From: an uncultured Planctomycetaceae bacterium
GTDB lineage: Bacteria > Planctomycetota > Planctomycetia > Isosphaerales > Isosphaeraceae
Direction of reading: 5' to 3'
Assembly: GCA_963833985.1 (NCBI GenBank)
Contig: CAWIAD010000002.1
Coordinates: 3,520,001-3,584,000, forward strand
Length of the DNA stretch: 64,000 bases
Shown: positions 680 through 60,593 of the stretch, piece after piece
How the letters are laid out: every line of letters begins with the position of its first letter
Position numbering within the stretch: position 1 is the stretch's first letter
Translations under genes and position numbers: made by a program
The notes under the pieces: model-generated
Databases searched by the model: none
The model's input: the letters and a program-made list of their open reading frames with translations, nothing else
What the model was told of the DNA's origin: nothing

Positions 680-1000
680 TCACGCATTGTGGAATCGCGG
701 GTCTTCGAGGGTCGAGGTCTCCACAGCGGCCGGACTGCCGGACACCGATACCGGCATTGAAGGATCGGGTTCCCGGGACGTCGTCGCGTCGTTGCTGCTT
801 GTTCGGACATTCAGTTCGGACCGATGGCGATACAGGATCGCGAGCAGTTCATCGTCGTCGATCTCCCCAAGGCCCCGACCAAGATGAGCTTCTCCCAGAA
901 AGCCCAGGTGAGCGAGCAACTGGCCGAGCCGCACATCCGGTGACAGGGCCCAGATCTCGGCCAGAACGGCGAGCGGTTCTCTCTGCGTGGTCGGGGTCAT
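680..1000 (-). CDS. Small hypothetical protein (putative antitoxin-like partner)
   Basis: 106 aa with helical core PDVRLGQLLAHL...DDDELL. Its start overlaps the upstream stop (ATGA). Confidence 0.65.
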   Translation of the reverse strand: MTPTTQREPLAVLAEIWALSPDVRLGQLLAHLGFLGEAHLGRGLGEIDDDELLAILYRHRSELNVRTSSNDATTSREPDPSMPVSVSGSPAAVETSTLEDPRFHNA

Positions 1001-1293
1001 CGAAGCAGATCTCCAATCCTGGGCTCGGCAGCAAAAGCCCTGGGAAGCTTGCCGATCACCTCGACGCGGAGGAGAACCCCTGGCGCGAGCTTGGCAATGC
1101 GGGTCGCACGAGTCACTCCAGTATACCGGACGAGCACGCCGTCTGACGCCTCGTCAACCCAGGGCGGTGGCATCCCGATCGATGATCTGCCGAAGAGCGA
1201 GATCTGCCTGGCCAACCGCGCCGGATCGGCTCCCTGCCGCCTCGAGGGAGGAACTCGCAGCTCCCGAGGGTCCACATCACGGAAGTCCTGCAT
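997..1293 (-). CDS. Small ParB/sulfiredoxin-like protein
   Basis: Start MQDFRDVDP at 1293. MPPPWV...GVLVRYTGVTRATR resembles the ParB/Srx PixV...xDGxxR core. Confidence 0.55.
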   Translation of the reverse strand: MQDFRDVDPRELRVPPSRRQGADPARLARQISLFGRSSIGMPPPWVDEASDGVLVRYTGVTRATRIAKLAPGVLLRVEVIGKLPRAFAAEPRIGDLLR

Positions 1294-1344
1294 CGAGTCG
1301 AAACCTGGCATGAACCCAGCGATACGCAAGAGCTGCTTGCGATC

Positions 1345-1443
1345 TGGCGGGAGCGTATGGGAATCGAACCCACCAGGAGCCTGTTTCCAGACCCCTCACC
1401 GGTTTTGAAGACCGGGCCCGGCACCAGCCATGGACACGCTCCC
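1345..1443 (-). tRNA. selC: tRNA-Sec (UCA)
   Basis: 8-bp acceptor GGGAGCGT/ACGCTCCC, G discriminator and encoded CCA. Anticodon arm CCGGT-CTTCAAA-ACCGG, long variable arm AGGGGTCTG-GAAA-CAGGCTCCT, T arm GTGGG-TTCGATT-CCCAT; 99 nt. Confidence 0.96.
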
Positions 1444-1712: not shown

Positions 1713-4097
1713 TCAGGGTTCGTAGCAGCCGGGGATCAGTATCGAGGGGACGCGACCGGCGGCGTGCAGGCGAAGCAGCGCGTGGCCCGTGCCCGCCAGG
1801 CCGAGCATGAGCGAGGGGTTCACGGCCGTGGACACCAGGCCGGAGGGGTAATCACAGGCTGTGCCGTGACGCTCGATGAGCACCCGCGCGATCTCGCCGG
1901 CCTGGTCGAGACACGCAGGGTCCTGGAGCTGAATTCCGGCGCAGAGCAGCACTTCAAGCAGTCCGGCCAGTCCGTGGCAAAGCGACGCGTCATGCCCGCG
2001 CCGTGGAAGGTTTTCCTGGACCGCGGCCAGGGTCGTCGCCAGGGCAGCCTGCGCCATCGCGCGGTGCCCTTCCCCTTGCTCCGGGTCCAGGGCCATGGCG
2101 CGCAGGCGGGCGAGTGCGATCCCGGGCGCGCCATGGCACCAGGCCCGGCCATGACCGGGAGGACGGGGCGGTCCCAGGGCATCCACGGTGAACCTCAGAT
2201 CCGGCCAGTTGCCGGCGGCCTCGTCGAAGAGGGAATCCTCGTAAGCGAAGGCGCCGCGGGCAGCTTCCTGGTAACCGGGGCGTCCCGTTGCCGCATGCAG
2301 CTCCAGCAGGGCCAGGGCAATGCCCGAGGCGCCGTGGCTCATGCCCGTGAGCGGTAGCGTCGCGGCGGACCCATCGCCGACGGCACCGGAGGACCACATC
2401 CAGATCGGGCCGGCACGGTCGGCCTGGCGGCAAAGCTGGTCACCGAGAGCCCGCGCCCATGCAAGGTGACGCTCGCTCCGGACAGGCGGGGCCAGCTCCC
2501 GGTGCAGGGCCAGCAGCGCGAGGATCGCCCCGGCGCTGCCGCCGATCAGGTCGATGGCATGCGGTTCGTCGACGGCCTCGTCGAGATGATCGAGCAGGAT
2601 CTCCGCCCGTGCGTGCAGTTCGTCGGCGCGGGTGAGGACGGCCACGCGATGCGCTGCGTACGCCACGCCGAGCTGGCCCGCGAACAGTGAAATGGGCGCC
2701 AGAGCGGAGACCGGGTCCTGCCAGTCGGTGACGGCCCGGAGCGAGCGGTTCATGGCGGCCATGGCGGTGCGGCGCAGCCCATGGTCCCCGGTGAGCCCGT
2801 GAACCTCGGCCAGGAAGAGGGCAACGCCCGCTGATCCGCCGTAGAGCTCCGGCCCGAGCGCCGCGGACGCGGGAACGATCGCACCACCGGGCTTCAGTTC
2901 GTCGGGAGAACGGCCCATCCAGTTGCAGAGAAGACCCGACGTGTCCCAGAAGGCCGCACGGCACAGGCTCTCAGCAATGCGGACTGCCGCGTCCAGCGGC
3001 GAAAGGGTCCGCTGTACAGCAGGCGCCGGGCCGCCCGCACTTGCGATCGACGGACGACGCTCCGCACAGGGCCTCCAGCCGGATAACGGCTCGAACGACG
3101 CGAACGTCGAGCCGGGCGCGAGATACGGGTACGCGGGGTCGAGTTGATTCTGGCGGAACGACTCGATGACCACCTGCAAACGGTCATCACCGATGCGGCC
3201 CCTGGCAAAAGCGTCCCAGAGCGCCCCTGCAATCAGCCGGCAGCGATGCTCGCCGTAGCTTGGTGAAGCCGGCGAGACCTCGACCATGGCCAGGCCGTCC
3301 GCCAGGCGATGCGTGAGCAGGGGCGTTTCAGGCCGCAGCTCCGCGGCGACGGACTCATAGATCGGCCCCATGGCACCGGCCAGGGCAGGGGCGTGGCGGC
3401 GGCCCACGTACAGGACTCCGGCGTCGGCGCGATGGTAGGCATCCGGATCTCTCAGGACCTTGAGCCGGAACGGGATGGCGCGCGCGTTCAGAGCGGAGCT
3501 TGCCACGGCGACGAAGCGTGTTGCGGCCTGGCGCGTGAGGTGCCAGTAGAACCGCCATTGTCGATCGCCGCCGTTTACCACGTCATCCAGCGCATCCTCG
3601 TCGGCATCGCCGTGAACGTAGAAGAACCCGGGCATGAGATGCCGCAGTTCCCTGGGAACGCGAAGCCGGCAGTGCTCTCCGGGAATCAGGCGGCCGCTGC
3701 CGGTGCGGACGTCCCGCGCGCTGGCCCGGACCTCGAGGTCCCCGCGGCCGACGACGACCTGACCGTCGTCTTCGACCACACGGACGGTCCAGTCCGGGCT
3801 CCAGGCGCCTTGCCCCGCATTCGCCGCCGACAGCGCGGCCAGGAAGTCGCGGCGGTCGCTCCAGCCCGAGCCGCAGGGAATTCCGGCTGGCGCGCTTCGG
3901 GTGTAGAGCCGGCGGTAGAGCTCACCGGCGAGCGAGTTCAACAGCGGCGCTGGACCTGGTTGTGGATCGTCCGACGCATCCCCCTCGCATTCTTCGAATT
4001 GCCGCGTGTCGTCCAGGATCCGGTAGCCCGCGGGCGAGAGGATCTGGACAGCCTGCACCATGGTTTCCAGGTCGGGATGGAAATGGACTTGCGGCAT
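1713..4097 (-). CDS. HopA1-like (LanY lyase) + LanC cyclase fusion protein
   Basis: True start is probably MPQVHF at 4097, overlapping the kinase stop. N-half has HopA1-type motifs RFYWHL, PFRLKVL, RADAGVLY, SYGEHRC. C-half has LanC motifs LYGGSAG, GMSHGASG, AWCHGAPG, SLCHGLAG, LMLGLAG. Confidence 0.88.
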   Translation of the reverse strand: MPQVHFHPDLETMVQAVQILSPAGYRILDDTRQFEECEGDASDDPQPGPAPLLNSLAGELYRRLYTRSAPAGIPCGSGWSDRRDFLAALSAANAGQGAWSPDWTVRVVEDDGQVVVGRGDLEVRASARDVRTGSGRLIPGEHCRLRVPRELRHLMPGFFYVHGDADEDALDDVVNGGDRQWRFYWHLTRQAATRFVAVASSALNARAIPFRLKVLRDPDAYHRADAGVLYVGRRHAPALAGAMGPIYESVAAELRPETPLLTHRLADGLAMVEVSPASPSYGEHRCRLIAGALWDAFARGRIGDDRLQVVIESFRQNQLDPAYPYLAPGSTFASFEPLSGWRPCAERRPSIASAGGPAPAVQRTLSPLDAAVRIAESLCRAAFWDTSGLLCNWMGRSPDELKPGGAIVPASAALGPELYGGSAGVALFLAEVHGLTGDHGLRRTAMAAMNRSLRAVTDWQDPVSALAPISLFAGQLGVAYAAHRVAVLTRADELHARAEILLDHLDEAVDEPHAIDLIGGSAGAILALLALHRELAPPVRSERHLAWARALGDQLCRQADRAGPIWMWSSGAVGDGSAATLPLTGMSHGASGIALALLELHAATGRPGYQEAARGAFAYEDSLFDEAAGNWPDLRFTVDALGPPRPPGHGRAWCHGAPGIALARLRAMALDPEQGEGHRAMAQAALATTLAAVQENLPRRGHDASLCHGLAGLLEVLLCAGIQLQDPACLDQAGEIARVLIERHGTACDYPSGLVSTAVNPSLMLGLAGTGHALLRLHAAGRVPSILIPGCYEP

Positions 4098-5240
4098 CAC
4101 GCGGACGACCCGGTGGAAAGGCCGTAGAAACCAAGCCGGCCGCGACACGTATCGGCCAGCAGGTTGGCGCCAAGCTGGAGCAGGAGCACGGCCTGTGTGG
4201 GCAGGACTTCCCGCTCCAGCGACAGCTCGTGCGCCGCCTGGATGAGACGTGCCGCCGAGAAGGCGACCGCGCGCTCGAGCAATTCCAGGGCGCTTGAGCC
4301 ACCGGCGCCGGCGTGGCATGACGCCGTCTGGGAGTACCCTTCCCAGAGCGCTCGGATGGCGGGTCGCAGCGCGCTCAGGGGATACTTCGCCCGACCGATC
4401 ATCTCTTCCACGGCGAGTTCCGGCTTCAGGGGCATGGACCCGATCCAGAGCATGACAAAATCGTGCAGGGCCGAGGCCAGGTCCCAGGCGGGGTCGCCGC
4501 GGTGCACGAATTCCCAGTCGACGAGCCAGATGGAAGCACTCGCGACCGATTGCCCCTCGTGTGTGCTGGCGACAAGGATGTTGTCGGCCTTGATATCGCC
4601 GTGAATGACCGTCTCTTCCCGCCACATCGCACCGAGACGCTCGACGCGGCTCCCAGGCCGGCTGCGCTGCGAAGGAGCCGGAACACGTCGGCCCCGGCAG
4701 GGCTAAGGTCGATGAGCATGCCCGGAGTCGGTTTCCGATGGGCCGCGAAGACCCAGGGCACCGGCCGCCCCAGCCAGCCTAGGCTGTCGTGGGCTGCCAG
4801 TTCCGGCCCGCGGAACACCCCGTGCAACGTGCCCAGCGCCCGGCCCAGGGCGTGGCTGGGCGCGACCGGGAACGCATCGGCCGGGTGTCCAAGATGGTGG
4901 GCGAGCAGAGTCCGGCGCCGGGAATCAGTTCCAGGGCGTGGGCCCCGTCCTCGCGGTCGAGCCAGCGGAGGCCTGGCAAGTACCTTGCCAGTTCCGCGGC
5001 TGCCGGTTCGTTGTGGCAAAAGTCGTAGAAGTGCGCTTCGTTCCTGAGCGTGTGGGAACTGGCCGGCGAGAGCGCATCGGGCTGCTTCACGAGCAGGCCG
5101 GCGCCGCCGGGTCCCTCCACCCTGAGGTTGCGGTTGCGCCGCGCCGCGCTGCGGACGGTCAGGCGGCCTTGAACGATCCAGTCTCGGTCCACGAGATTCT
5201 GTTCGAGCAAGAACGGGATCACGGTGTCGACGTCCAGCAT
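4097..5240 (-). CDS. APH/phosphotransferase-family kinase (LanK-like), two apparent frameshifts (~4910, ~4640)
   Basis: Pieces in three frames: RRNRN...LLVKQP (N-lobe), LGRALGTLH (middle), IHGDIKADNILV and LVDWEF..RGDPAWDL (catalytic and Mg-binding motifs). Confidence 0.82.
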
Positions 5241-5339
5241 CGAGCGGCTCGCGGGTAAGGTCAGCCGGCAAAACAGGGCGGCTTGAGACGTCGGGTAACG
5301 GGTCGCATGGGCCTGCGGCGTCCGAACCGCGGCACGACA

Positions 5340-5867
5340 TCAAGGGTAAGGGTGAGGGTAGATTGGATCCGACACGCACACGCCGGTCAGGTGGCAATTG
5401 GAGGTCCCGCCAGTGCCGCCTGTGCCGCCGGTGCCACTGGGTGTCTCAACGCCTGACAGTGGCCTGCACGGCGTGGTGTGCACGAGGTTCTTGTCCTCGT
5501 TCTCGACCAGGATGTTCACGGTGAGGCCGGCCGCGGACGTGGACAGGCTTTTTGAGGAGATCGCGCCTTTCAGATACCCGGCCTCGACCTGCTGCGACGA
5601 GACCACTCGATTGATACTGGCGGTGGCGCTGACCACCAGCTTCGTGGGACTCGATTGCTGCCCGGGGACCGATCGCTCGGCCCAGACAATCTCGCCCCTG
5701 GGGATCTCCAGGTAGCAGCGCAGGTCCAGGTCCGGATAGATGGTCACGGTCTGTTCGGTGACCGTGTCGATGTAGCCGTGAAGGATGATGAACTGGCGCT
5801 GGTCGTCGGGCCTGGGCTTGAGGGCCTGGAGAAGCGGATTGGTGAAGAGTTCCAGGGAGTTGCTCAC
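5340..5867 (-). CDS. Putative RiPP precursor with large N-terminal domain and Ser/Thr/Cys-rich C-terminal core
   Basis: GTG start with AGGAG RBS; 175 aa. Tail HTTPCRPLSGVETPSGTGGTGGTGGTSNCHLTGVCVSDPIYPHPYP. First gene of the kinase/lyase-cyclase run. Confidence 0.7.
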   Translation of the reverse strand: MSNSLELFTNPLLQALKPRPDDQRQFIILHGYIDTVTEQTVTIYPDLDLRCYLEIPRGEIVWAERSVPGQQSSPTKLVVSATASINRVVSSQQVEAGYLKGAISSKSLSTSAAGLTVNILVENEDKNLVHTTPCRPLSGVETPSGTGGTGGTGGTSNCHLTGVCVSDPIYPHPYP

Positions 5868-5962: not shown

Positions 5963-8900
5963 TCAGCGGACTCGGTTCCCCGCGAGGGAACGGCGTGCCG
6001 TCCAGGCGCTGGAGTCAAGTACGTGGATCACGCCATCGTCGCCAAGGCCAAGCCCGGTGAGGCTCTCGAGTTCGGCGGCGACATTGGCTGCATCCGCCAC
6101 ATCGGCGGCCTCCGCGGCGGACGGGGCGGCAGCCACGCTCCAGAGGCGCGCCGTGAGGTCTTCACAGCGCGTCAGGACCGCGCGATCGTCCGGCGAGAGG
6201 GCAACGCTGAAGACCTCAAAAGGGTCTCCGCCCGGTTTGCGAGGATGCGCAAGGGCCGGGCCGATGGGCCGTCCCGTGCCGGCATCCCAGAGGCTGGCCG
6301 TCCCGTCCTGGCTGCCTGTCAGGGCCAGCCGTCCGTCCCGGCTGAAGGCCACGGTCGTCACCGCGGCCTGATGCAGCAAGGGCTGACCGCGCGGCGTGCG
6401 GGACGCGGCATCCCACAATCTGGCACGCCCGTCGATGCAGCCTGTGAGGACGGTCTGGCCGTCTGGACTGACGGCCACGGCGGCCACGCCGGCCGGGTGG
6501 ATCAGGGGGGCTCCGCGCTGCACCCCGGTTGTGATGCTCCAGAACCGGGCCTGGTTGTCGAGGCAGCCGCTGACCAGGGTCTCTCCATCCGGGCAGAGCG
6601 CCAGCGCCACGACCGGCCCGGTATGCGGCAGCGGAGGCAGCTTCGCGGCCCCGGTGTCCGGGTCCCAGAGTCGCACGGTCGTATCGACGCTGGCGGTGAT
6701 GGCCGTGCGTCCGTCCCGACTGAACCGGCCCTCGAAGATCACCGTCTCGTGCCTCAGCACCGCGCCGCGCGGGACTCCGCTCTGCACGTCGCAGAGGCGG
6801 GCCGTGCCGTCCAGGCTGCTGAAGAGCACCGTTCTCCCATCCGGGCTGAACGCGGCCGACTTGACCCGCTTCGCGAACCGCAATGCCTGGCCCACTGGCC
6901 GGAGAGCCGCCAGGTCCCAGAGCTGGGCCCCGCCGTTTTGTCCGCCCACCGCGACGCACTGTTCGTCCGGGCTCGACGCCAGAACGCTGACCGGCTCGCC
7001 CGTGGCAAGAGGAGCGGCTTGCGGCTGCCCGGACGTCGCGGAGCAAAGCAGCACCGTGCCGTCACCTGTCCCCAGCAGGAGGCGCTTGCCGGCGGACCCG
7101 TAGGCCGCGTACTGCACCGCGCCGGCATGCGGCAGCTCGCGGACCGCGTTCCTGTCCGGCCGCGCGTCCCAGAGCCGGCTGGTCCGGTCGGCCCCGGCGG
7201 TGAGGAGCTTGAGACCGTCGGGACTGAATGCCACGCTGTTGACCCTGCTCTCGTGGCGAAAATCGCGGCCCAGCGGCCGGCCGGTGCGTGCGTCCCAGAG
7301 CCGTGCCGAGTGGTCCCAGCTGCCCGTTGCCAGGGTCTGGCCGTCCGGGCTGAACGCGAGGGACCAGACCCGGTCATCGTGCCGCAGAATATCCCCCCGG
7401 CGCAGTCCCGTGGCAACCTCCCAGAGCCGCGCCGTATGGTCGGCTCCCGCGGTTGCCAGGGTCTGCCCGACCGGGCTGAAGACGGCCACCCAGACCTCGC
7501 CGTCGTGCGCCAGCTTGTGCAGCAGACGGCCGCTGGAGACGTCCCAGAGCCGAGCGAAGTGATCCGCGCTGGCGGTGGCCGCGACCTTGCCGTCGGGGCT
7601 GAGATCGACCCACTTGACCTGGTTCTCGTGTCGCCAGGGTTCTCCCAGAGGCCGCCCCGTGGCAACCTCCCAGAGCCGCGCCGTGCCGTCGTCGCCACCG
7701 GTGAGAAGCGTCTCTCCGCCGGCTGCCAGCGCCACCGAGACGATCCGGTCCGGATGGCCGGGTAGCTCACGCAGCAGCCGGCCGTCGGCCACGCTCCAGA
7801 GGCGCGGCTTACCGTCGGCGCCAGCCGTCACGAGCCGCGTTCCGTCGGAGCTGAAGACCCCCTGAGACACCTCGCCGCGGTGTCCCACGAGGTCGTGCCG
7901 CAGTGCCCCGCTGCCGGCATCCCAGAGCCGCGCCTCGCCGCTCAGGCTGGTGGTGAGCACCGTCTTGCCGTCAGGGCTGAACGCCCCGGTCCAGACCACG
8001 CCCCGGTGCGGCAAGGGCGGTCCCACGGGCATGCCGCTCGTGGTATCCCAGAGCCGTGCGGCCTGGTCGGCGCCGGCGGTGAGCACCGCCTTGCCGTCGG
8101 GGCTGAAGGTGGCGAACTTCACCTCGCCGGCGTGCGAGAACACCGCCTCCAGGTTCGGGTAGGAACGTTGCCAGGCCGCCAGGTTCTCCCGGGCGATGCG
8201 CGCAGCGCGGGGTCGCCGGCAGCACGAGCGGCATGCAGACTGCGGGCCAGCCAGTGGAGACCGGGGCCAACATCGCCGCGCTCGCAGGCGGCGCGGCCGA
8301 GCCCGAAATCGAGCACTGCAAGCTCACGGGTGGACTGGTTCAGCAGGCGAGCGCGGTTCAGGGAATAGAGGGTCGAGAGGATGGTCACGGCCACCAGGGA
8401 GGCCGACATGCCTCCCAGGGCGGATGCCAGCGCGGGGTTGCGCAGGCACCAACGCCAGGCGCGCTCCGCCGAGCTGACCGGCCGGGCCTTGATCGGTTTG
8501 TTCTCGAGGAACCGCCGCAGGTCCTCGCTCAGCTCCGCGGCCGTCTGGTAACGGCTGGCAGGGGTCTTGTGCATGGCTTTCAGGCAGATCGTCTCCAGGT
8601 CCCGCGGAACCCGGTCGTTGAGCTTACGGGGGGGCCGTGGATCATCATGGATCACCTGGTCCAGCAGCATCCGCGCTGTCCCGTGAAACGGCAGCTCGCC
8701 ACTGATCATCTGGTAGAGCACGACGCCGAGGCTGTAGACGTCGCTGCGCCGATCCACCTTGCTCTGCTCGCCGCGCGCCTGTTCGGGAGGCATGTACGCC
8801 GGGGTGCCGAGGATCTGGCCGTCCACCGTGATCGAGATCTCGCCGGCCTCGCGCTTGGCCAGCCCGAAATCCATGAGGATTGGCTGGCCCTCGTTGTCGA

Positions 8901-9676
8901 TCATGATGTTCTGCGCCTTCACGTCGCGATGCACCACGTTCCCCTGGTGGGCGGCGTGCAAGGCGTCGGCCAGCTCGGCCGCCGTCCAGGCCGCCTCCCG
9001 AAACGTGGGCCGGCGGGTCTTGAGCGACTCGGCGAGCGTCACCCCGGTGATGAAGTGGCTGACGATGTACGGGATGCCCTCGAACTCGTCAGCCTCGATC
9101 ACGCGGACGATGGCTCGATGGTTGAGCCGGGCAACGGTGCGCGCCTCCTCCCAGAACCGCTCGCGCGAGCCGTTCTCACCCAGCGAGCCGGCGCAGCAGC
9201 TTCACGGCGACATCACGCTGGAGCTTCGAGTCGTAGGCCCTGTAGACCGTGCCGAACGCGCCGGTGCCGACCGGCTCGACCAGCTCGTACGAGGAAATCC
9301 GGTTCGTGCCCAGGGAAACCGTCCGGGGCAGCCTCACGGAGCTGCCAAGGGCAATTCGCGAGTGGCACGTGGGACATTCCAGGTGGTCGGCGGGCGCCTG
9401 GTCGACCAGCTCGATGCCCGCCCCACAGTTGGGGCAGTGCAGCTTGAGCGACCGCAAGGGTTCCAGCACGACCCCGTCGCGCGTGGTCTCGTGCGGCGGC
9501 GCCAGGAAGTCCTCGCGCTCGGCCTGGGCGTCGCGGGCCAGCAGCCGCTCGACCTCGGCGCGCAGGTCCGGTTCCTCACCGCAACGGCTCTGGAGCAGCG
9601 CCTGCCGCTCTTCCGCGGAGAGCGGCAACGCTTCGTGGAACAGCTCGTAGACGCGCTGCCACACACCTTCGGTCAT
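5963..9676 (-). CDS. Ser/Thr protein kinase with C-terminal WD40 repeats (frameshifts ~9185 and ~8170)
   Basis: CPNC/CPTC zinc ribbon, GTGAFGTVY, VAVK, HRDVKAQN, DFGLAK, GTPAYMPPE, a TM segment, then many H...AFSPDG...ARLWD repeats. Confidence 0.88.
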
Positions 9677-10245
9677 TGCTTGCCTCCCTCGAGCTGGTCG
9701 CGCAGCCAGGCACGAGCGAACCGCCAGTCCAGCTCCACGGTTCCCACCGAGACCTCCAGCGCGTCGGCGACCTCGGACACGGAGAGCCCCGCAAAGAACC
9801 GCAAGGCGACGACCAGACCCTGCCGCTCGTTGATCTCGGCCAGCCTGTCGAGGGCTGCATTGAGGGCCTCGATGTCCAAGTTCTGCTCCTCGAAAAACGC
9901 CAGGGCCTCGTCCAGGGGCACCCGTTTCAGGTCCCCGCCATGGTTTTTTCGCTTGCGGTGATGGTCCACCAGCACGTGGCGCATGGCCCGCATCGCGGCG
10001 CCGAAGAGGTAACGGCGGTTCGGGGCCTTCTCGATCGCGTGCCCGTTGATCAGCCGGACGAACGCTTCCCCCACCAGGGCCGTGGGCTGGAGCGTGTGTC
10101 CCGGCCGTTCCTTGCTCATGAGAGACACGGCGATGCGATGAAACTCCTCGTAGATGGCGCGGAGCAGTTGATCCCGGGCGGGTCCCTCCCCGTTCCGGGC
10201 CGCCTTGATCAGCTCGGTCACGTTCTGCGTCTGGTTCACATTCAT
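9673..10245 (-). CDS. ECF RNA polymerase sigma factor (planctomycete/TIGR02999-like)
   Basis: HTLQPTALVGEAF, AMRHVLVDH, LRFFAGLS, DWRFARAWL; translationally coupled to the kinase. Confidence 0.92.
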   Translation of the reverse strand: MNVNQTQNVTELIKAARNGEGPARDQLLRAIYEEFHRIAVSLMSKERPGHTLQPTALVGEAFVRLINGHAIEKAPNRRYLFGAAMRAMRHVLVDHHRKRKNHGGDLKRVPLDEALAFFEEQNLDIEALNAALDRLAEINERQGLVVALRFFAGLSVSEVADALEVSVGTVELDWRFARAWLRDQLEGGKQ

Positions 10246-10443
10246 CGTCTGACCCTGAAGCCTCCCAGGGCAGGGAAGATCGGTCGCTCTCCCCGCATGG
10301 TCATGCGTCACGCCGCTCGACAACCTTAACGCTCACCCGACTTTTTTCTTTCCGTGAATTCTTTCGGGTACCCCAGGCCGGCTTACGTATATGCCTTCTA
10401 GAAGGATGATCAGCGAGATGGCAACGAGGCGAAAGGATCGGTC

Positions 10444-10959
10444 ATGGGGAACCCGATGAACACCCGCACCGACTGGCGGCCCGGACCGGCGATCCGGGGA
10501 CCGCACCAGGCTGAGTGCGACACGCGGAGGCTGATCGTGCCTGATCATCAGGAGAGCCGAGCCCGGCTGCTGGTTCGCCCCGTCGGCGATCTCATCGTCG
10601 TCAGGTGTTTCAGCACCCAGGTGGAATGGGACGATCCGGAAACAGGAGACCTGGGCACAAGCCTGCTTGGACTGAGCAAATTGGGCTATGTGCGCATTCT
10701 GGTCAATCTCGAGGGTATCAACTACGCGTCGGGATCGCTGCTGGGTAGTCTTGCCCATTTACATCAGGCCACCGTTCGCGCCGGGGGCTTCCTGAAGCTC
10801 TTCGGCCTGGAGGCGATCCTGCGGGACGCGCTTGTCATTTGCCGGCTCGATTCCAGGCTGGCGATTTACGCCAGCGAGTCGGAAGCCCTTGAGGGCAGCG
10901 TACCGGCCGCGGATCATGCCGGCTTGTGGATTCCGGGGGGACTGTCCCCTCGTTTCTGA
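10444..10959 (+). CDS. STAS domain protein (anti-sigma factor antagonist)
   Basis: ILVNLEGINYASGSLLGSL...GGFLKLFGL...ICRLD, a STAS pattern. Confidence 0.75.
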   Translation: MGNPMNTRTDWRPGPAIRGPHQAECDTRRLIVPDHQESRARLLVRPVGDLIVVRCFSTQVEWDDPETGDLGTSLLGLSKLGYVRILVNLEGINYASGSLLGSLAHLHQATVRAGGFLKLFGLEAILRDALVICRLDSRLAIYASESEALEGSVPAADHAGLWIPGGLSPRF

Positions 10960-21197: not shown

Positions 21198-22674
21198 AAT
21201 GCCGCGAAGTTAATTTTAACTAATTGTGCCATTTGATCTTGCGCCATGGGTGAGGCTCCGGGCATCCTGTGGGAAGTACCAGGACCCACAGTTGCTGGAG
21301 GGAGCCCCACCCATGCCGCCTCGCATCATCCCTATTCTCGATCGACTGCGCCAAGATATCGCCGCGGGATTGTCCCGGGAGACGATCGAAGAAGCCTGCC
21401 GCCAGGCGAAACACCGCTGGCGGAATCGCGTTCTCGACCCCGCGACGACCATTTATCTGTTCCTTCTCCAGGTCCTTCATGGCAACACGGCCTGTCGCCA
21501 CGTGGTGCACTTCGGCGGTTGGACCTTCACCGACAGCGCCTACTGCCTGGCGCGAAAGCGGCTTCCGCTGGCCGTCTTCGACTAGCTCGTGGAGCGGACC
21601 GCTGCCGCCGTGCGGACTGCTTCGGATGCGCGCGGTGGCTCGGGCACCGAATCTGGGTCGTCGACAGCTCCAGCTTCTCCATGCCGGACCAACCAGAACT
21701 GCAACGTCACTTCGGCCAACCCAGCGGTCAACGCAAGGGCTGTGGCTTCCCGGTGGCGAAATGGCTGGCCCTCTTCGATGTCGCCACGGGCATGCTGCTG
21801 CGTTCGAGGACGGCCCCTTTGCGGACCCACGACATGTCCCAGGTCGGCCCGATCTCCGACGGCCTGGAGCCGGGAGACATCGTGCTCGGTGACCGCGGAT
21901 TTTGCTCGTATGCTCATCTGGCAATGTTACTGCAACGCGGTCTGCATGCGGTTTTCCGCGTGCACCAGCAGCAGATCGTCGATTTCACGCCGGGTCGTCC
22001 GATGGCCAGGAGGAAGGGTCCGTACCCCAGGCCGCAGGGTCTGCCGAGTTCGCGGTGGGTGTTGGCGCAGGGAACCGCAGATCAGATTGTCACATGGTTT
22101 AAATCGAAATCCCATCCGAAGTGGATGTCGGCGGATGAGTTCGAGGTGCTGCCCTCCGAGATCACCGTGCGCGAGCTGAGGTACCGGGTCGAGACACCCG
22201 GGTATCGGGTGCGCGAAATCACGCTGGTCACGACTCTGTTAGACGCATCGACCTACCCGGCGACAGAGCTGGCCGAACTCTACTACAAGAGGTGGAGAGT
22301 CGAACTCAATTTTCGTCATATAAAGATTAGCATGAAGATGGATGTTCTGCGTTGCGAGACAGTCGAAGGGGTTCTCAAAGAGCTGGCGATTTTCAGCCTG
22401 GCGTATAACCTGGTAAGATCGGTCATGCTGGAGTCGGCACGCATGCGCGGCGTTGATCCGGATCGGATCGGCTTGATCGACGCGGTGCGCTGGCTGATCG
22501 GGTCCGAAGGGGGTTCTGAGCCCGCGCGGATCGTCATCAACCCATTGCGCCGCGGACGCGTCGAGCCCCGAGTCGTAAAGCGACGACCAAAACAGTACAT
22601 GCGGATGACCAGGCCCAGATCCGAACTCCGCAAGCAATTGCCAATGAAGCACTTCTGACTAACTTCGCGGCATT
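21198..22674 (+). mobile_element. IS4-family insertion sequence
   Basis: Inverted ends AATGCCGCGAAGTTA / TAACTTCGCGGCATT enclose the transposase. Confidence 0.85.
21313..22658 (+). pseudogene. IS4-family transposase, nonsense codon (TAG 21583) plus frameshift (~21630)
   Basis: SAYCLARKRLPL, VVDSSSFSMPD, LGDRGFCSY, Y..RWRVELNFRHIK (YREK-like), EPRVVKRRPK. Confidence 0.88.
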
Positions 22675-41616: not shown

Positions 41617-42789
41617 GTGTCCTGAGTTACAAATTCACCAAATAACCTTGACTTATCATGTATTCGTCATATAATCTCTCAAAGGAGATTTATGATGAAT
41701 AAAGGTGGTCGCCCCAAGGCTACTCTCACTTTGAATGATGTCGAGCGCCAGAAACTCGAAGCGTGGTCGCGCCGGCCCAAGACCAGCCAGCGTCTCGCCC
41801 TCCGTTCGCGGATCATCTTGGCTTGCGCTCAAGGTTTCGATAATCAGGAAGTCGCCGCACAGCTCCGGGTGAATGTCGTGACGGTCGGGAAATGGCGGAA
41901 ACGTTTCCTCCTCGATCGTCTCGACGGCCTGTCCGACGAGCCAAGGCCGGGGGCGCCCTGCAAAATCACGGACGCAATGGTCGAGGCCGTTGTGACCAAG
42001 ACTCTGGAGGAGAAACCCAAGGCCGCCACGCATTGGAGCACTCGGGGCATGGCGGAAGCCGTCGGCTTGTCTCAGACAGCGATCTCGCGTATCTGGCGAG
42101 CGTTCGAGTTGAAGCCTCACCGCAGCGAGACGTTCAAGCTTTCCACGGACCCCTTTTTCATCGAGAAGGTCCGCGACATCGTCGGGTTGTATATGAGCCC
42201 GCCGGAGCGCGCTATCGTCTTGAGCATCGACGAGAAGAGCCAGGTGCAAGCGTTGGACCGTACCCAGCCGTTGCTTCCCATGGGGCCTGGCCAGGCGGAG
42301 AGGCGAACTCCGGATTATGTACGCAATGGGACGACTTCGCTGTTCGCCGCCTTGGACGTCGCGACAGGTCGTGTGATTGGCAAATGCTACCGTCGCCATC
42401 GACAACAAGAATTCCTCAAATTCCTCAACGAGATCGATAGCCAGATCGCCAAAGCACCAGGCGTCGAGATTCACCTCGTCATGGACAACTACGGCACACA
42501 CAAAGCTCCAGCCGTGAAGCGGTGGTTCGCTCGCCATCCCGAGTATCATCTGCATTTCACTCCCACCAGCGGCTCTTGGCTGAACCAGGTTGAACGATTC
42601 TTCGCGGAGATTACCGAGAAGCGAATTCGCCGTGGAGTATTCCGGAGCGTGGCGGCGTTGGAACAGGCGATCCATGAATTCCTGGCAAAACACAACGTAA
42701 ATCCCAAGCCTTTCGTATGGACGGCAGATGCTGATATGATCTTAGATCGAGTGGCGAGGGTTTGTGAGCGAACTTCTAACTCAGGACAC
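41617..42789 (+). mobile_element. IS630-family insertion sequence
   Basis: Ends GTGTCCTGAGTT / AACTCAGGACAC flanked by TA within CTAG on both sides. Confidence 0.93.
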
Positions 42790-42792
42790 TAG
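41692..42792 (+). CDS. IS630 transposase (intact)
   Basis: [31 protein letters not shown]. Confidence 0.95.
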
Positions 42793-44468: not shown

Positions 44469-45293
44469 TCAGCGCGGGCGCGGGCCTCGCGGCTGATAGA
44501 CCTCGAGGTAGCACTTCTCGTCAAGCTGCCCGATTTCGTGCGCCATGCCATGGGCCAAGAGCTCACCTCCCATAATCATGAGCAAACGGTAGTTCCCCGC
44601 GCTGTGGTCGACCAGTGTCTCTGCGAGCTGGGGCGTCATGAGCGCGGCATTGCCGGCCTTGGCCAGCGCGTGTTGAAGCAACTCCAGGAGCTCTTCGCGG
44701 GTGGCGGGCTCGGTGACCAGTCGCGTGCGAATCCGGGTGCCCAGGGGCACCAGATCTTCGTGCCGCAACAGTTCCAGCAGTCGTTCATCTCCCGAGAGGA
44801 TCACGGTCAAAAGCGACGTGGCATCGAAGTCGGCGCTGGAGAGAATACGCAGCTCGCAGAGGACCTCAGGGCTCATCTCCTGGGCTTCGTCGATCAGCAG
44901 CACCGGGCGGATCCGCGAGGAGGCCACGTGGGCTTTCCACCGCTCGCGGAGCGCCTTGAACCCGCACCAGCGATTGTGCGGTGCCAGCTTCACCGCGAAG
45001 ATGTCCCCCAGCTCCCGATAGAAGTCGGGGCTCTTCGACTGGGGTCGCTCGATCACACCGACGGTGACATCCCGCAGCGCCGCCAGCCGCCCGGCCACAA
45101 TCCGCAGCGCCACCGATTTGCCGGTGCCCGACTCACCCGTGATCAGCGCGAAGCCTCCTTCCTGGACCAGCTGTTCCACGCGCCAGGCAAATTGCTCGAT
45201 CCTGGGGGGCGCCAGCAGTGCTTCGGGAGGAAGCTCGGGTGAAAACGGGTTCCATTTCAGCCCATAGAGTGCCAGCAGTTTCTTGCTATTCAT
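44469..45293 (-). CDS. ExeA-like AAA ATPase (transposition helper)
   Basis: YGLKWNPF, GESGTGKS, LLIDEAQ. Confidence 0.9.
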   Translation of the reverse strand: MNSKKLLALYGLKWNPFSPELPPEALLAPPRIEQFAWRVEQLVQEGGFALITGESGTGKSVALRIVAGRLAALRDVTVGVIERPQSKSPDFYRELGDIFAVKLAPHNRWCGFKALRERWKAHVASSRIRPVLLIDEAQEMSPEVLCELRILSSADFDATSLLTVILSGDERLLELLRHEDLVPLGTRIRTRLVTEPATREELLELLQHALAKAGNAALMTPQLAETLVDHSAGNYRLLMIMGGELLAHGMAHEIGQLDEKCYLEVYQPRGPRPR

Positions 45294-46763
45294 GAGGGTT
45301 CTCCGTTGTCTTTCGGGGATGTCCTGGGCAAATAGGCCGGCGGCATGCCCGTGGCCGAGTACTCCTGGAGGATCCTTTTCAGGAGGGGTGGCAGTTCGCC
45401 GGCGTCGCGCCGCTGCTCTGGGGACGGCACCTCGGTGCCACCGGACCCGGTTACGGCCCGGCGGCCGTCGGCGTTGGCGGCTTTGTCGAGGGGATAAATG
45501 GGAGCCAGGACGGTTCCACTTTGCTCGTCGACCAGATCGATCCGGCCGAGGTCCCAGCGGGCGTAACGGACGGTCACTGCGCGGAAGTGACGGTACCTTG
45601 CCGGAATCTCGAAGCGCCTCCCCTCCAGTGAGATGGTGCCGTCGCTTTGACGCTGGCTCCTCTTGGTCTCCAGGCGGAATGCCGCACGCAGCGCTACACT
45701 CGAAGGGCTCGAGCGAAGCACATCGGGGGCCTTGGCGAAGCGGTCGACCGGCGAGCTGCCGGTCTCGCGGTGCACGGCGCGGTTGTACTCAATTTCCATC
45801 CAGGCCTGGGTTGCCTCATTGAGCAATTCCAGGGTCAATTCCCTGACACCATCGAGCATCTTCATGAGCCGCCCCTCGAGCGTGCCCCAGAACGCCTCCT
45901 GCTTGCCGTTTTGATACGGGCTATAAGGGAGCGTTCGCTCTGCGACGATGCCCAGACGCAAGAGCCCTTCGGTGACTTCCTCGGCCACCATCGCGGAGCC
46001 GTTATCGGTCAACAGCGCGCGCGGCAGGCCCCGTTTCTGGATCGCCTGGGAGAGTCCGTGCACCAGGTCCTCGGCGGTCTCCGAGAGATACCACTGAACG
46101 TGGCAGCACAGTCGTGAGTGGTCATCGAGGATGCCCAGCGCGATTGGCCGCAGCCACTGGCCGCCGGGAGTGAGCACCTTGAGCGATCCGTGGTGGAAAT
46201 CGAGATGCCAGAGCGCTCCGACATGGGTGGCTTCGTAGCTGCGGATTTCCCGTGTCTGACGCCTCTCTTGGGCGCGGACTTCGCCAGGGCGTCCGCCGGG
46301 CCGGAGCCTCGGTCTGCGCACCAGGCCGTGAGCCTGCATGAAACGCTTGATCGTGGAATAGGAGGGGAGCCGCCCCAGTGAGGGATCGGCCTTCAAGAGC
46401 GCGGCGAGGTTGTCGTAGTGCAGTTGATAGCTCCAGTCCGTGTGATCGCGATACTGGAGATGGAGTCGCTCGGCGAGGGTCGCCGCCAGCGAGATCTTTC
46501 CGCAGTCTTTCCGCACGGCACGACGCAAGGCGGCGACCGGGTCGTCAGGCTGGTGGAGCGCCGTGTAGTACCAGCGCGCGATGGTGGCGGCCGCGACGCG
46601 GACATCGCGCCCCGTCACAGGATGCGACCAGGTCTTTTCGGCAAGGGAGCAGATCGCTGTCTGAAGCGATCCGCGCAGGGGGAGAGCTCAGGAGCGAGCC
46701 CACCACGGAGAACCGAAACCGTGCCCACAAGGCAGCGGTTGAACAGGGGTGTCTTTGAGTCAT
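45290..46763 (-). CDS. DDE (rve) transposase, Mu/TnsB-like (frameshift ~46670)
   Basis: LWHLDFH, ILDDHSRL, TDNGSA, PYQNGKQE; N-terminus WARFRFSVVG lies in another frame. Confidence 0.88.
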
Positions 46764-58349: not shown

Positions 58350-60593
58350 CCTACTTTCCGCACATCTCGCCTTGACTATCTCCTAATTTCCGTGTGCCGT
58401 CTTTCGGCCTGTCAGGCTCAAATCTCGTAGGCTTTGGGTATCCCCAGCAGGCGCAGGATCCTCTTCTGGAGCCGAGTTAACTCTGTGCTGAACACCTCAA
58501 GAGGGCGTTTCCCAGCCTTCAGGGAATGCTCTTGAACGTCCTCGTACAGGTCGATCACTTTTCGAGCCGTCGGGCGTCGGCAGGCCCGACCTTCGGAATA
58601 CAGTGGCAGGCTCTCGATTCCCGCTCGTTCCATCGCGCGGCGGAGTTCTCGCTCCAACAGCGCCTCGACCAGCAACACGAAGAAGTACACGCAGAGCAAG
58701 GCCTGAATCCGACTCACCTCCTTCAGGTACATAGGCGCTACCACGAAGTCAGTCTTCAGGTGCTCGAACCGTCGTTCGATGGCCGGTTGCTGTTTGTAGG
58801 CCAAGAGCAGATCCTGCTCCGTCATCTTCGATTCGTTGCTCACCAGCGGGAAAATGCCATCACAGCGGGCCTCCTCATCCAGTCGCTCCAACTCAATCCG
58901 ATGCTTCAACGAGTAACGGAGCTTCTCCTCTCGGACGTACCGCGTGTCCTGTCCAGGCCGGCCGCGTCGCTCCTGGCGGAACTTTTCGGTGACCTGCTCC
59001 TCGATCTCGACCGAGATCCACTCGGTGACCTCACAGTCTCGGAGCAGCTCCTCGACCGCCTCGGCGACCTTGGCTCGACTGCGGTACCGGGTTCGGGACG
59101 AGGCGAGCTTGGCACGCAGTTCGTCCAGTCGTTTCAACGCCTTCTCCAGCCGGGTCAGCCGTACCTCCGCATCCAACTCGGCCTTGCGTGTGCTGTGATA
59201 CCAGATCAGCCGGTAACCCTCGGTGGTCTGGCTCGCAGGTTTGCAGATCGAGAAGCGGTCGGTCAACTGTCCCTTGTCGTCGTACTTGTCGTGGGTCCAT
59301 CGCCACTGGATCTCTCCCCGGAGTACGGCGCCGCGGAAGGCACCGTCCTCACTGCGAGTTCGCGGCAGCACGCTGAGGAACCGACCGCCGCGCTGATGCA
59401 GATAGGCCATGTTCTCGGTGGTGGCCAGCTTGCAGTCGGCGATGTAGAGAAAGTCTCGGCGTCCGGTCAGTTGACAGAGCAACTCCCAGGTCTCCTGGTG
59501 AGAGCGGTCGTCGGTGGCGTTGCCGCTCTCGACGCGAAAGTGCACCGGGACGGCACCGTCGCCGGTCACGGTGAGGATGTAGAGTAGCTGCTTGAGGTCG
59601 GGGCGGTGGTCTTTGTTATGACCCCAGGTCACCGCCAACCGCAATTGTCCCCGCAGGGTTCGCTCCGCCTCCGCCGACTCGTAGTCACCGTGGAAAGTGA
59701 TGGTGGTCGAGTCGTTGTGTAACTGGTCGAGGCTGACGTCGAATTCGCGTACGGCATGGGCCGCGACCTTCAGGGCCAACCCCGAGAGATTGGCGTCGAA
59801 GAGACGGTCGAGGGCCCGGCCAACTCGATCGTCGTTCATTGCGGCGACTTGGACATCGGACAACCCGAACAGTTTCGGCTCATGGCGGGCCACCCACTCA
59901 CCGACACCATAGAGTGGCTCACGCGAGATCAGCAGGTTGCGCAGCAGGACGAGCAAGGCCGTGGCCGTGGGGACCCGAGTGCGGCCGTCCTCATGGGGCA
60001 GGTGGTCGCAGAGAAACTCGCGAAGGCGGAGCCGACTCAGGAAGTGTTCCAGGATGGGCACGGCGGCAATCCGCCGCGTGTTGAGCGTGCGCTTGCGTCC
60101 CTTCGAGCGTGCCGTCTCGCCGGGTTGGCGCGGTCGTTGAGGTTCGTTCATGCGGATCATCTCCGGAGGGTTTGCAGCGAGTTGGCCGGTGTCCGCCGCC
60201 GGGCCTTCCAGGGCCGTGAGGGGAGCAGGCCGACCGCCGCAGGGCTTGCCGCAATGATGGCGGAGGAGATCGGGACGTCAAGGACAAAAAATCTTGTGAT
60301 TCACTTATGACAATTTGCCTTGACGTAAGTTGTGAGCCGCTCAACTTACGCTCATAGCCCGTGTCACAAGTCGTCGCGGCGAGAATCGCGGCGCGCGGCT
60401 GGACATTGCCAAGTCATAAGACAAGGCGAAGAATGGCTCGAGTTCAGGAACGGTCCGGTTGGCGAACCATCTGAACCGAACAAGGTCCCCGTGCCGATCG
60501 ACTTGTAGATGTTTACCGACCCTGGGGCCGCGTCTGAGAAGATGGCCTCAGGTCGAATTCGGGGAAATCAAAGGGAGATGTGCGGAAAGTAGG
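58350..60593 (-). mobile_element. IS1634-family insertion sequence
   Basis: Perfect 19-bp IR CCTACTTTCCGCACATCTC; 6-bp TSD CTTCAA at 58344-58349 and 60594-60599. Confidence 0.95.
58418..60160 (-). CDS. IS1634 transposase (intact)
   Basis: NDDRVGRALD, HNDSTT, GHNKDHRPDLKQ, YIADCKL, YKQQPAIERRF. Confidence 0.93.
   Translation of the reverse strand: MIRMNEPQRPRQPGETARSKGRKRTLNTRRIAAVPILEHFLSRLRLREFLCDHLPHEDGRTRVPTATALLVLLRNLLISREPLYGVGEWVARHEPKLFGLSDVQVAAMNDDRVGRALDRLFDANLSGLALKVAAHAVREFDVSLDQLHNDSTTITFHGDYESAEAERTLRGQLRLAVTWGHNKDHRPDLKQLLYILTVTGDGAVPVHFRVESGNATDDRSHQETWELLCQLTGRRDFLYIADCKLATTENMAYLHQRGGRFLSVLPRTRSEDGAFRGAVLRGEIQWRWTHDKYDDKGQLTDRFSICKPASQTTEGYRLIWYHSTRKAELDAEVRLTRLEKALKRLDELRAKLASSRTRYRSRAKVAEAVEELLRDCEVTEWISVEIEEQVTEKFRQERRGRPGQDTRYVREEKLRYSLKHRIELERLDEEARCDGIFPLVSNESKMTEQDLLLAYKQQPAIERRFEHLKTDFVVAPMYLKEVSRIQALLCVYFFVLLVEALLERELRRAMERAGIESLPLYSEGRACRRPTARKVIDLYEDVQEHSLKAGKRPLEVFSTELTRLQKRILRLLGIPKAYEI

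Follow-up and report, generated by a model that had tools for sequence, protein, structure and literature searches.

A 64,000-nucleotide stretch of DNA from an uncultured Planctomycetaceae bacterium (assembly GCA_963833985.1, contig CAWIAD010000002.1, positions 3,520,001 to 3,584,000; hereafter the window) contains three genes encoding a precursor-like protein (A), a LanK-like kinase (K) and a fusion of a HopA1/LanY-like lyase with a zinc LanC cyclase (YC). Here it is proposed, with a probability of about 0.7, that these genes form an operon that stitches thioether bridges into the tail of A. In this pathway, K would phosphorylate Ser/Thr residues of the tail, the lyase (Y) domain of YC would eliminate the phosphate, leaving dehydroamino acids, and the cyclase (C) domain would add tail cysteines to the dehydro residues, forming (methyl)lanthionine bridges. 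K probably forms a pair with the Y domain in the manner of LxmKY (LxmK-LxmY; PMC12141560) and would bind a helix of A carrying an FLxGxI-type motif. The chemistry itself is already known; the precursor family is the less expected part, and the more interesting part of the locus is the open reading frame (ORF) of 175 amino acids, which belongs to a large folded-leader family. The features of the system are:

5340..5867, minus strand: A, precursor-like protein of 175 amino acids; GTG start, with AGGAG 8 nt upstream.
5598..5795, minus strand: predicted small all-beta domain of A (residues 25-90), with weak Hfq/Sm/SH3-like resemblance only.
5559..5576, minus strand: FLxGxI-type motif of A (YLKGAI, residues 98-103), putative enzyme-recognition helix.
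4097..5240, minus strand: K, LanK-like APH-family kinase with two one-base deletions; VKQ, HGDIKADN and DWE motifs present.
1713..4097, minus strand: YC, HopA1/LanY-like lyase and zinc LanC cyclase in one protein of 794 amino acids.

The three genes are co-oriented on the minus strand in the order A, K and YC, and the TGA of K and the ATG of YC share one base (TGATG, 4099-4095), as an earlier note on this DNA had described. A, K and YC are each present as a single copy in the genome. Named close homologues come from Isosphaerales or Isosphaeraceae and the nearest rows of the tree from Planctomycetota, which fits the planctomycete-like host guessed in that note.

YC contains HopA1 (PF17914) at residues 154-326 (E 8e-29) and LANC_like (PF05147) at residues 414-787 (E 3e-49), together with the zinc-site motifs WCHG (C654) and CHG (C707, H708). 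The fusion with intact zinc ligands was thus described correctly, and the profiles that had been suggested as a check (HopA1, LANC_like and APH) all found matches, including PF17914 in the N-terminal half. By family profile, the C-terminal half has its best PDB match in LicM2, a class II enzyme (E 3e-42), NisC and LanCL ranking lower, and the N-terminal half has its best match in the lexapeptide lyase LxmY (9dk1, E 2e-29). The cyclase residues H588/C654/C707/H708, which we take to be the LanC acid and zinc ligands equivalent to NisC His212/Cys284/Cys330/His331, are kept in 72/74/73/71 of 76 fusions. The lyase residues R182/K213/R223/Y230 are kept in 76/75/73/67 of the same 76, and their spacing in YC (31/10/7) resembles that of R187/K219/R229/Y236 in CaoY (32/10/7; PMC9486802). 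From these residues, both the lyase and the cyclase look competent.

The A protein has a predicted beta-barrel, the YLKGAI helix, a linker and a tail, and it belongs to a family that falls into about 2,600 clusters when grouped at 50% identity. Its members share one pattern, in which a predicted barrel is followed by a helix with FLxGxI and by a tail that is hypervariable. The motif is present in 143 of 150 family representatives. The earlier note had recognized a protein-sized precursor with a Ser/Thr/Cys-rich tail, and the length and the tail cysteines bear this out; it missed the membership in a folded-leader family. Large folded-leader precursors are known from the proteusins (NHLP) and the Nif11 types, which, like A, combine a protein-sized conserved leader with a hypervariable core, whereas the leader of A is predicted to be all-beta. 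The NHLP and Nif11 models gave no sequence match to the A family, and 53 members searched against Pfam and NCBIfam had no match at a meaningful level. FLxGxI also occurs in short, barrel-less ORFs 5' of K-Y-C genes, and the barrel before the helix would be dispensable for modification in some relatives. A is probably the substrate and the FLxGxI helix probably the grip of the enzymes.

Other precursor-like genes were seen beside K-Y-C genes of other lineages. Four Bacteroidota loci (L017:5250-6629, L026:5285-6736, L050:5288-6376 and L111:2838-4226) have another conserved N-terminal domain, of ~150 amino acids, followed by Cys/Thr repeats; this domain represents a second unnamed leader family, and the L050 copy has no Pfam match. 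Undibacterium-type loci (L052, L061, L064 and L071) have one more long Cys/Thr ORF, placed between A and K, as well as a radical SAM/SPASM gene and DUF1843 genes on the opposite strand.

The tails of the family look shaped for thioether rings. Cysteine makes up 10.5% of the tails and 0.1% of the leaders, and Cys together with Ser/Thr is found in 147 of the 150 representatives. For the analysis of spacing, 205 tails were reduced to 152 groups and the first 60 residues of each were compared with shuffles. Ser/Thr at position -5 from Cys was seen 308 times, compared with 122 in shuffles (2.5-fold, z 17), which is what thioether rings would require, and (S/T)x4C occurs in 130 of the 152 tails (84 +/- 5.5 in shuffles). 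Positions -3, -4 and +2 are also enriched and -1 and -2 depleted, while long background ORFs are flat (ratios 0.97-1.2). As to the class Vb feature of a product with (methyl)lanthionine as its sole cross-link, what was observed is this bias in the family tails. In A itself, the tail cysteines are at 134, 158 and 164, each in a TxxC motif (T131-C134, T155-C158 and T161-C164), and the last two motifs are kept as (T/P)SNCxx(T/S)GxCVSD in three of the five closest homologues; small TxxC rings may be formed in this copy. Tail length is hypervariable, with 0-527 amino acids among the representatives and about 1,060 in L138. The latter is one of four giant homologues (L138:3035-6826, L078:4411-6702, L074:3712-5334 and L149:3903-5462), with tails of 380-1,060 amino acids that contain 36-124 Cys in repeated cassettes.

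The gene neighborhood links A to the enzymes in both directions. Of the K-Y-C loci, 76 have 1.5 kb or more of upstream sequence, and an A homologue is found in 50 of these, including 31 of 48 split loci and 19 of 28 fused ones (loosely called); neighborhood analysis of the fusions was another check put forward in the earlier note. In the reverse test, covering 121 genomes of the host family, 23 of 26 A matches adjoin K-Y-C genes, and the remaining three come directly after an extracytoplasmic function (ECF) sigma factor gene and a kinase-WD40 gene, as in the window.

The fusion is genuine, frequent and labile. Both domains are on one protein in 96 of 112 homologues, and of 79 genome loci, 20 have fused genes, 46 carry Y and C as separate neighboring genes and 8 have LanM, with 5 excluded as unclear or without a full cyclase. 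The loci reach at least 10 bacterial phyla and one archaeal record; the latter, a kinase and fused HopA1-LanC from Nitrososphaeraceae (L059:583-4007), is on a 5-kb contig, which makes its binning uncertain. In a quick cyclase-domain tree, the labels fused, split and LanM require nine changes in total, well-supported branches force at least four for the fused form, the rows nearest to the window YC include split forms, and the LanM cyclases have their own branch. Because fused and split forms are interspersed, the fusion is no marker of a new class. Of the 121 genomes of the host family, 24 gave a match, and the presence in the genus is patchy (3 of 13 genomes apart from the source genome).

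Several observations weigh against the proposed operon. The window A tail has no (S/T)x4C motif, the A copy of the same-genus genome G010 has lost tail cysteines, and a few tails have 0-1 Cys (Cys plus Ser/Thr in 56 of 62 locus tails). The search profile included a few columns of tail Cys, and the Cys counts in its top 150 may be inflated by them. Two genomes, G042 (93% complete) and G084 (80%), have an A-like barrel, and neither HopA1 nor LanC was matched in them. Proteases and exporters are not conserved across loci: among 111 loci no neighbor cluster was found in more than seven, the commonest peptidase clusters occurring in 4, 3 and 3 of them and an ABC-permease cluster in 4. Finally, K is broken, and the system as assembled cannot work. 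Two or more breaks, as in K, were seen in only 3 of 157 genes, and the kinase-WD40 gene upstream of A adds another two, so that a stretch of 5.6 kb has four breaks, more than the genome mean; real local decay is possible.

K is read in three frames, with one-base deletions near 4912 and near 4650, and intact homologues align to it end to end. Its C-terminal piece matches APH (PF01636, E 1.8e-8) and LxmK (NF038156, 43 bits; cut-off 315), and the K52, HxD, N and DWE residues that are invariant among 51 homologues are present. The assignment as an APH-type kinase therefore stands; the two breaks were acknowledged beforehand only in a passing mention of a "repaired kinase". Compared with the proteins of G001, the source genome (G000) has 31 frameshifts in 183.5 kb (0.17/kb), in 27 of 157 genes, whereas the reverse control gave 2 in 170 kb for G001 (0.012/kb), in 2 of 156 genes, a 14-fold difference genome-wide. 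Because of this much higher rate, the kinase breaks are probably sequencing or assembly errors rather than decay. The essential gene rpoB is whole in G000. As ~17% of the tested G000 genes look frameshifted, claims of split or fused ORFs in this genome need caution.

A tentative alternative, compatible with the proposal for the family as a whole, is that the kinase breaks are real and that the window copy is a decaying relic from which no modified product is made. The cluster of four breaks agrees with this, as do the patchy presence in the genus and the position of A and K-YC on separate contigs in G011. The high frameshift rate of the assembly speaks against it, as does the state of the rest of the locus: A and the 2.4-kb fusion are intact, and the aligned kinase pieces have no in-frame stop and a third-position GC content (GC3) of 0.82-0.84, like the neighboring genes. 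Relatives are also broken elsewhere, with the kinase whole and the fusion start broken in G010.

It is unlikely that A is instead a working intracellular protein, neither cleaved nor exported, in which stapling or reversible phosphorylation of the tail tunes a role linked to the ECF sigma factor and kinase. The head of A is confidently predicted to be folded, the conserved neighborhood offers no protease or exporter, and 19 of the 24 family loci have a same-strand Ser/Thr kinase gene no more than 4 kb upstream; however, these kin are not independent, the genome has 119 such kinase loci, and the upstream gene differs beyond planctomycetes. The three A homologues without adjacent enzymes all follow the ECF and kinase-WD40 genes, and the A-like proteins of G042 and G084 keep the barrel and the Cys tail and lack FLxGxI. 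This absence of the motif would fit a function of FLxGxI as the enzyme handle, and the retained parts hint that the barrel and Cys tail have a job of their own, both judged from two incomplete genomes. Against the intracellular role stand the tails, hypervariable in length and sequence like the cores of peptides that are made by the ribosome and modified after translation (RiPPs), and the related K-Y-C loci served by short, barrel-less precursors. Many RiPPs also rely on proteases encoded elsewhere. It is highly improbable that the enzymes act on another substrate (a short peptide elsewhere, or a small thiol added to dehydro residues as by LanCL) with A as an accessory or chaperone, since the LanCL1/2 structural matches and the K-YC genes without a detectable adjacent A in L185 and L195 are set against the (S/T)x4C bias of the tails, the replacement of A by short motif-bearing Ser/Thr/Cys peptides in other loci and a best cyclase match to class II LicM2.

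Around the proposed thioether-forming operon, the following features were found:

5963..9676, minus strand: Ser/Thr kinase-WD40 gene, split by two breaks into three frames, with its end 96 bp upstream of A; candidate regulator, non-biosynthetic.
9673..10323, minus strand: ECF sigma factor gene (PF07638) that shares bases with the kinase-WD40 gene at the latter's start; candidate regulator.
1345..1443, minus strand: tRNA-Sec gene, a flanking landmark 270 bp downstream of the fusion.

The ECF and kinase-WD40 genes lie with a divergent STAS gene at 5963-10959, and this trio also flanks A in G010 and G011. A-like barrel proteins with Cys-rich tails and without FLxGxI were found directly 3' of ECF and kinase-WD40 genes at L202:5233-5835 and L203:6958-7443, in genomes where HopA1 and LanC gave no match. 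In other loci, mostly of Chloroflexota (L018, L020, L025, L037 and L087; L012, L013 and L056), a BTAD-AAA-TPR or LuxR-TPR regulator takes the upstream place of the ECF and kinase genes. In G010, too, a tRNA-Sec gene lies close to the locus (L181, around 4327), and this gene is a possible insertion landmark. Two overlapping short ORFs of 106 and 110 amino acids, without family match, are 3' of tRNA-Sec (680-1000 and 997-1329, minus strand), and transposase or integrase genes (DDE_Tnp_1, DDE_3, rve, DUF4277) are found at 21246-22658, 41656-42792, 45290-46618 and 58418-60160. Among 25 chosen ORFs of the window, roughly one per gene, there was no peptidase and no decarboxylase, and an MFS transporter is 30 kb away among sugar genes. 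The genome has two PF02441 matches, one about 194 kb from the locus and one on another contig. None of the decarboxylase, protease or exporter genes that the earlier note reported as absent is adjacent.

If the enzymes are active, they would close rings in tails that are unrelated to each other and range from a dozen to about 1,000 residues in length, all following a single short helix. This would be useful for stapling peptides and proteins, and it would give access to some 2,600 precursor clusters that escape mining for short peptides. With a defined family of putative substrates, a motif that may serve recognition and a rule for the spacing of rings, the 2021 prediction on HopA1-LanC fusions becomes a testable one. 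Unbroken versions exist in named cultured strains; L062 (Catellatospora), L048 (Pseudovibrio) and L182 are examples of natural sets without breaks. A more speculative extension, and on balance a doubtful one, is that the A family consists of lanthionine-stapled proteins, in which the Sm/SH3-like barrel stays attached and possibly oligomerizes, and tails of up to ~1,000 residues carry dozens of thioether rings inside the cell, working in planctomycetes with a module of ECF sigma factor and Ser/Thr kinase. If true, lanthipeptide chemistry would reach whole proteins, in thousands of sequences and at least 10 phyla.

Among known systems, class Va lanthipeptides and thioamitides (CaoK/CaoY, LxmK/LxmY, TsaC/TsaD) share the split kinase-lyase dehydration; however, they need LanD/LanX for S-aminovinyl-cysteine (AviCys) or YcaO/TfuA and have no LanC, which is present here. 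Class Va membership was rejected on that LanC, on the lack of an adjacent LanD/LanX and on the C-terminus of A (YPHPYP, no C-terminal Cys). No YcaO/TfuA pair was found among the scanned flanking ORFs; no genome-wide search was made. The cyclase half resembles class II LanM enzymes (LicM2, CylM), with TIGR03897 at 255 bits over residues 365-778. Membership in that class was rejected, as the PF13575 dehydratase is absent and the TIGR03897 score covers the C-terminal half only and is under the 304-bit cut-off.

HopA1-LanC fusions had been predicted by Eyles 2021, in which 20% of HopA1-like proteins are near or fused to LanC (PMC8153245, section 16) and fusions beside a phosphotransferase could be a new, uncharacterized LanM-like synthetase. 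With this prediction, and with fused and split forms alternating on the tree, the earlier presentation of the fusion as a departure from known class V was overstated. Distant kinase-lyase pairs in Planctomycetes have also been noted (PMC7794033), and (S/T)X4C has been described in class Va cores (PMC11186320). The networks of Eyles 2021 list short peptides (families 11/20 and 22), and those of family 11 carry FL(R/Q)G(D/E)I, akin to the motif of A. Motif searches of its dataset 2 gave no barrel-type precursor (Figs S26-S32 were not covered), and no account of the barrel-leader family was found in the literature; the family, its motif and the spacing rule appear undescribed.

The closest system is class Vb, defined by LanK, LanY and LanC without a decarboxylase and exemplified by SmoK/SmoY/SmoC, which make mSmoA (Pei et al. 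JACS 2022; PMC11186320, PMC12291118, PMC12328550). The window has the PF01636 kinase, though frameshifted twice, PF17914 with the catalytic Arg/Lys/Arg/Tyr, a zinc LanC in the cluster and no decarboxylase. The dehydrate-and-cyclize reading of the earlier note and the precursor role that it gave to A have good support from the domains and catalytic residues, from the conserved order of the genes and from tail spacing that resembles rings; the novelty was overstated, class Vb being published. In contrast to class Vb, the lyase and cyclase form one polypeptide, the 175-amino-acid precursor has a predicted folded leader, and the host is a planctomycete, all known here from sequence. Class Vb requires stand-alone LanY and LanC in the wording of PMC12291118, and YC is one ORF of 794 amino acids; the system would thus work like class Vb and yet is outside it as defined, because Y and C are fused.

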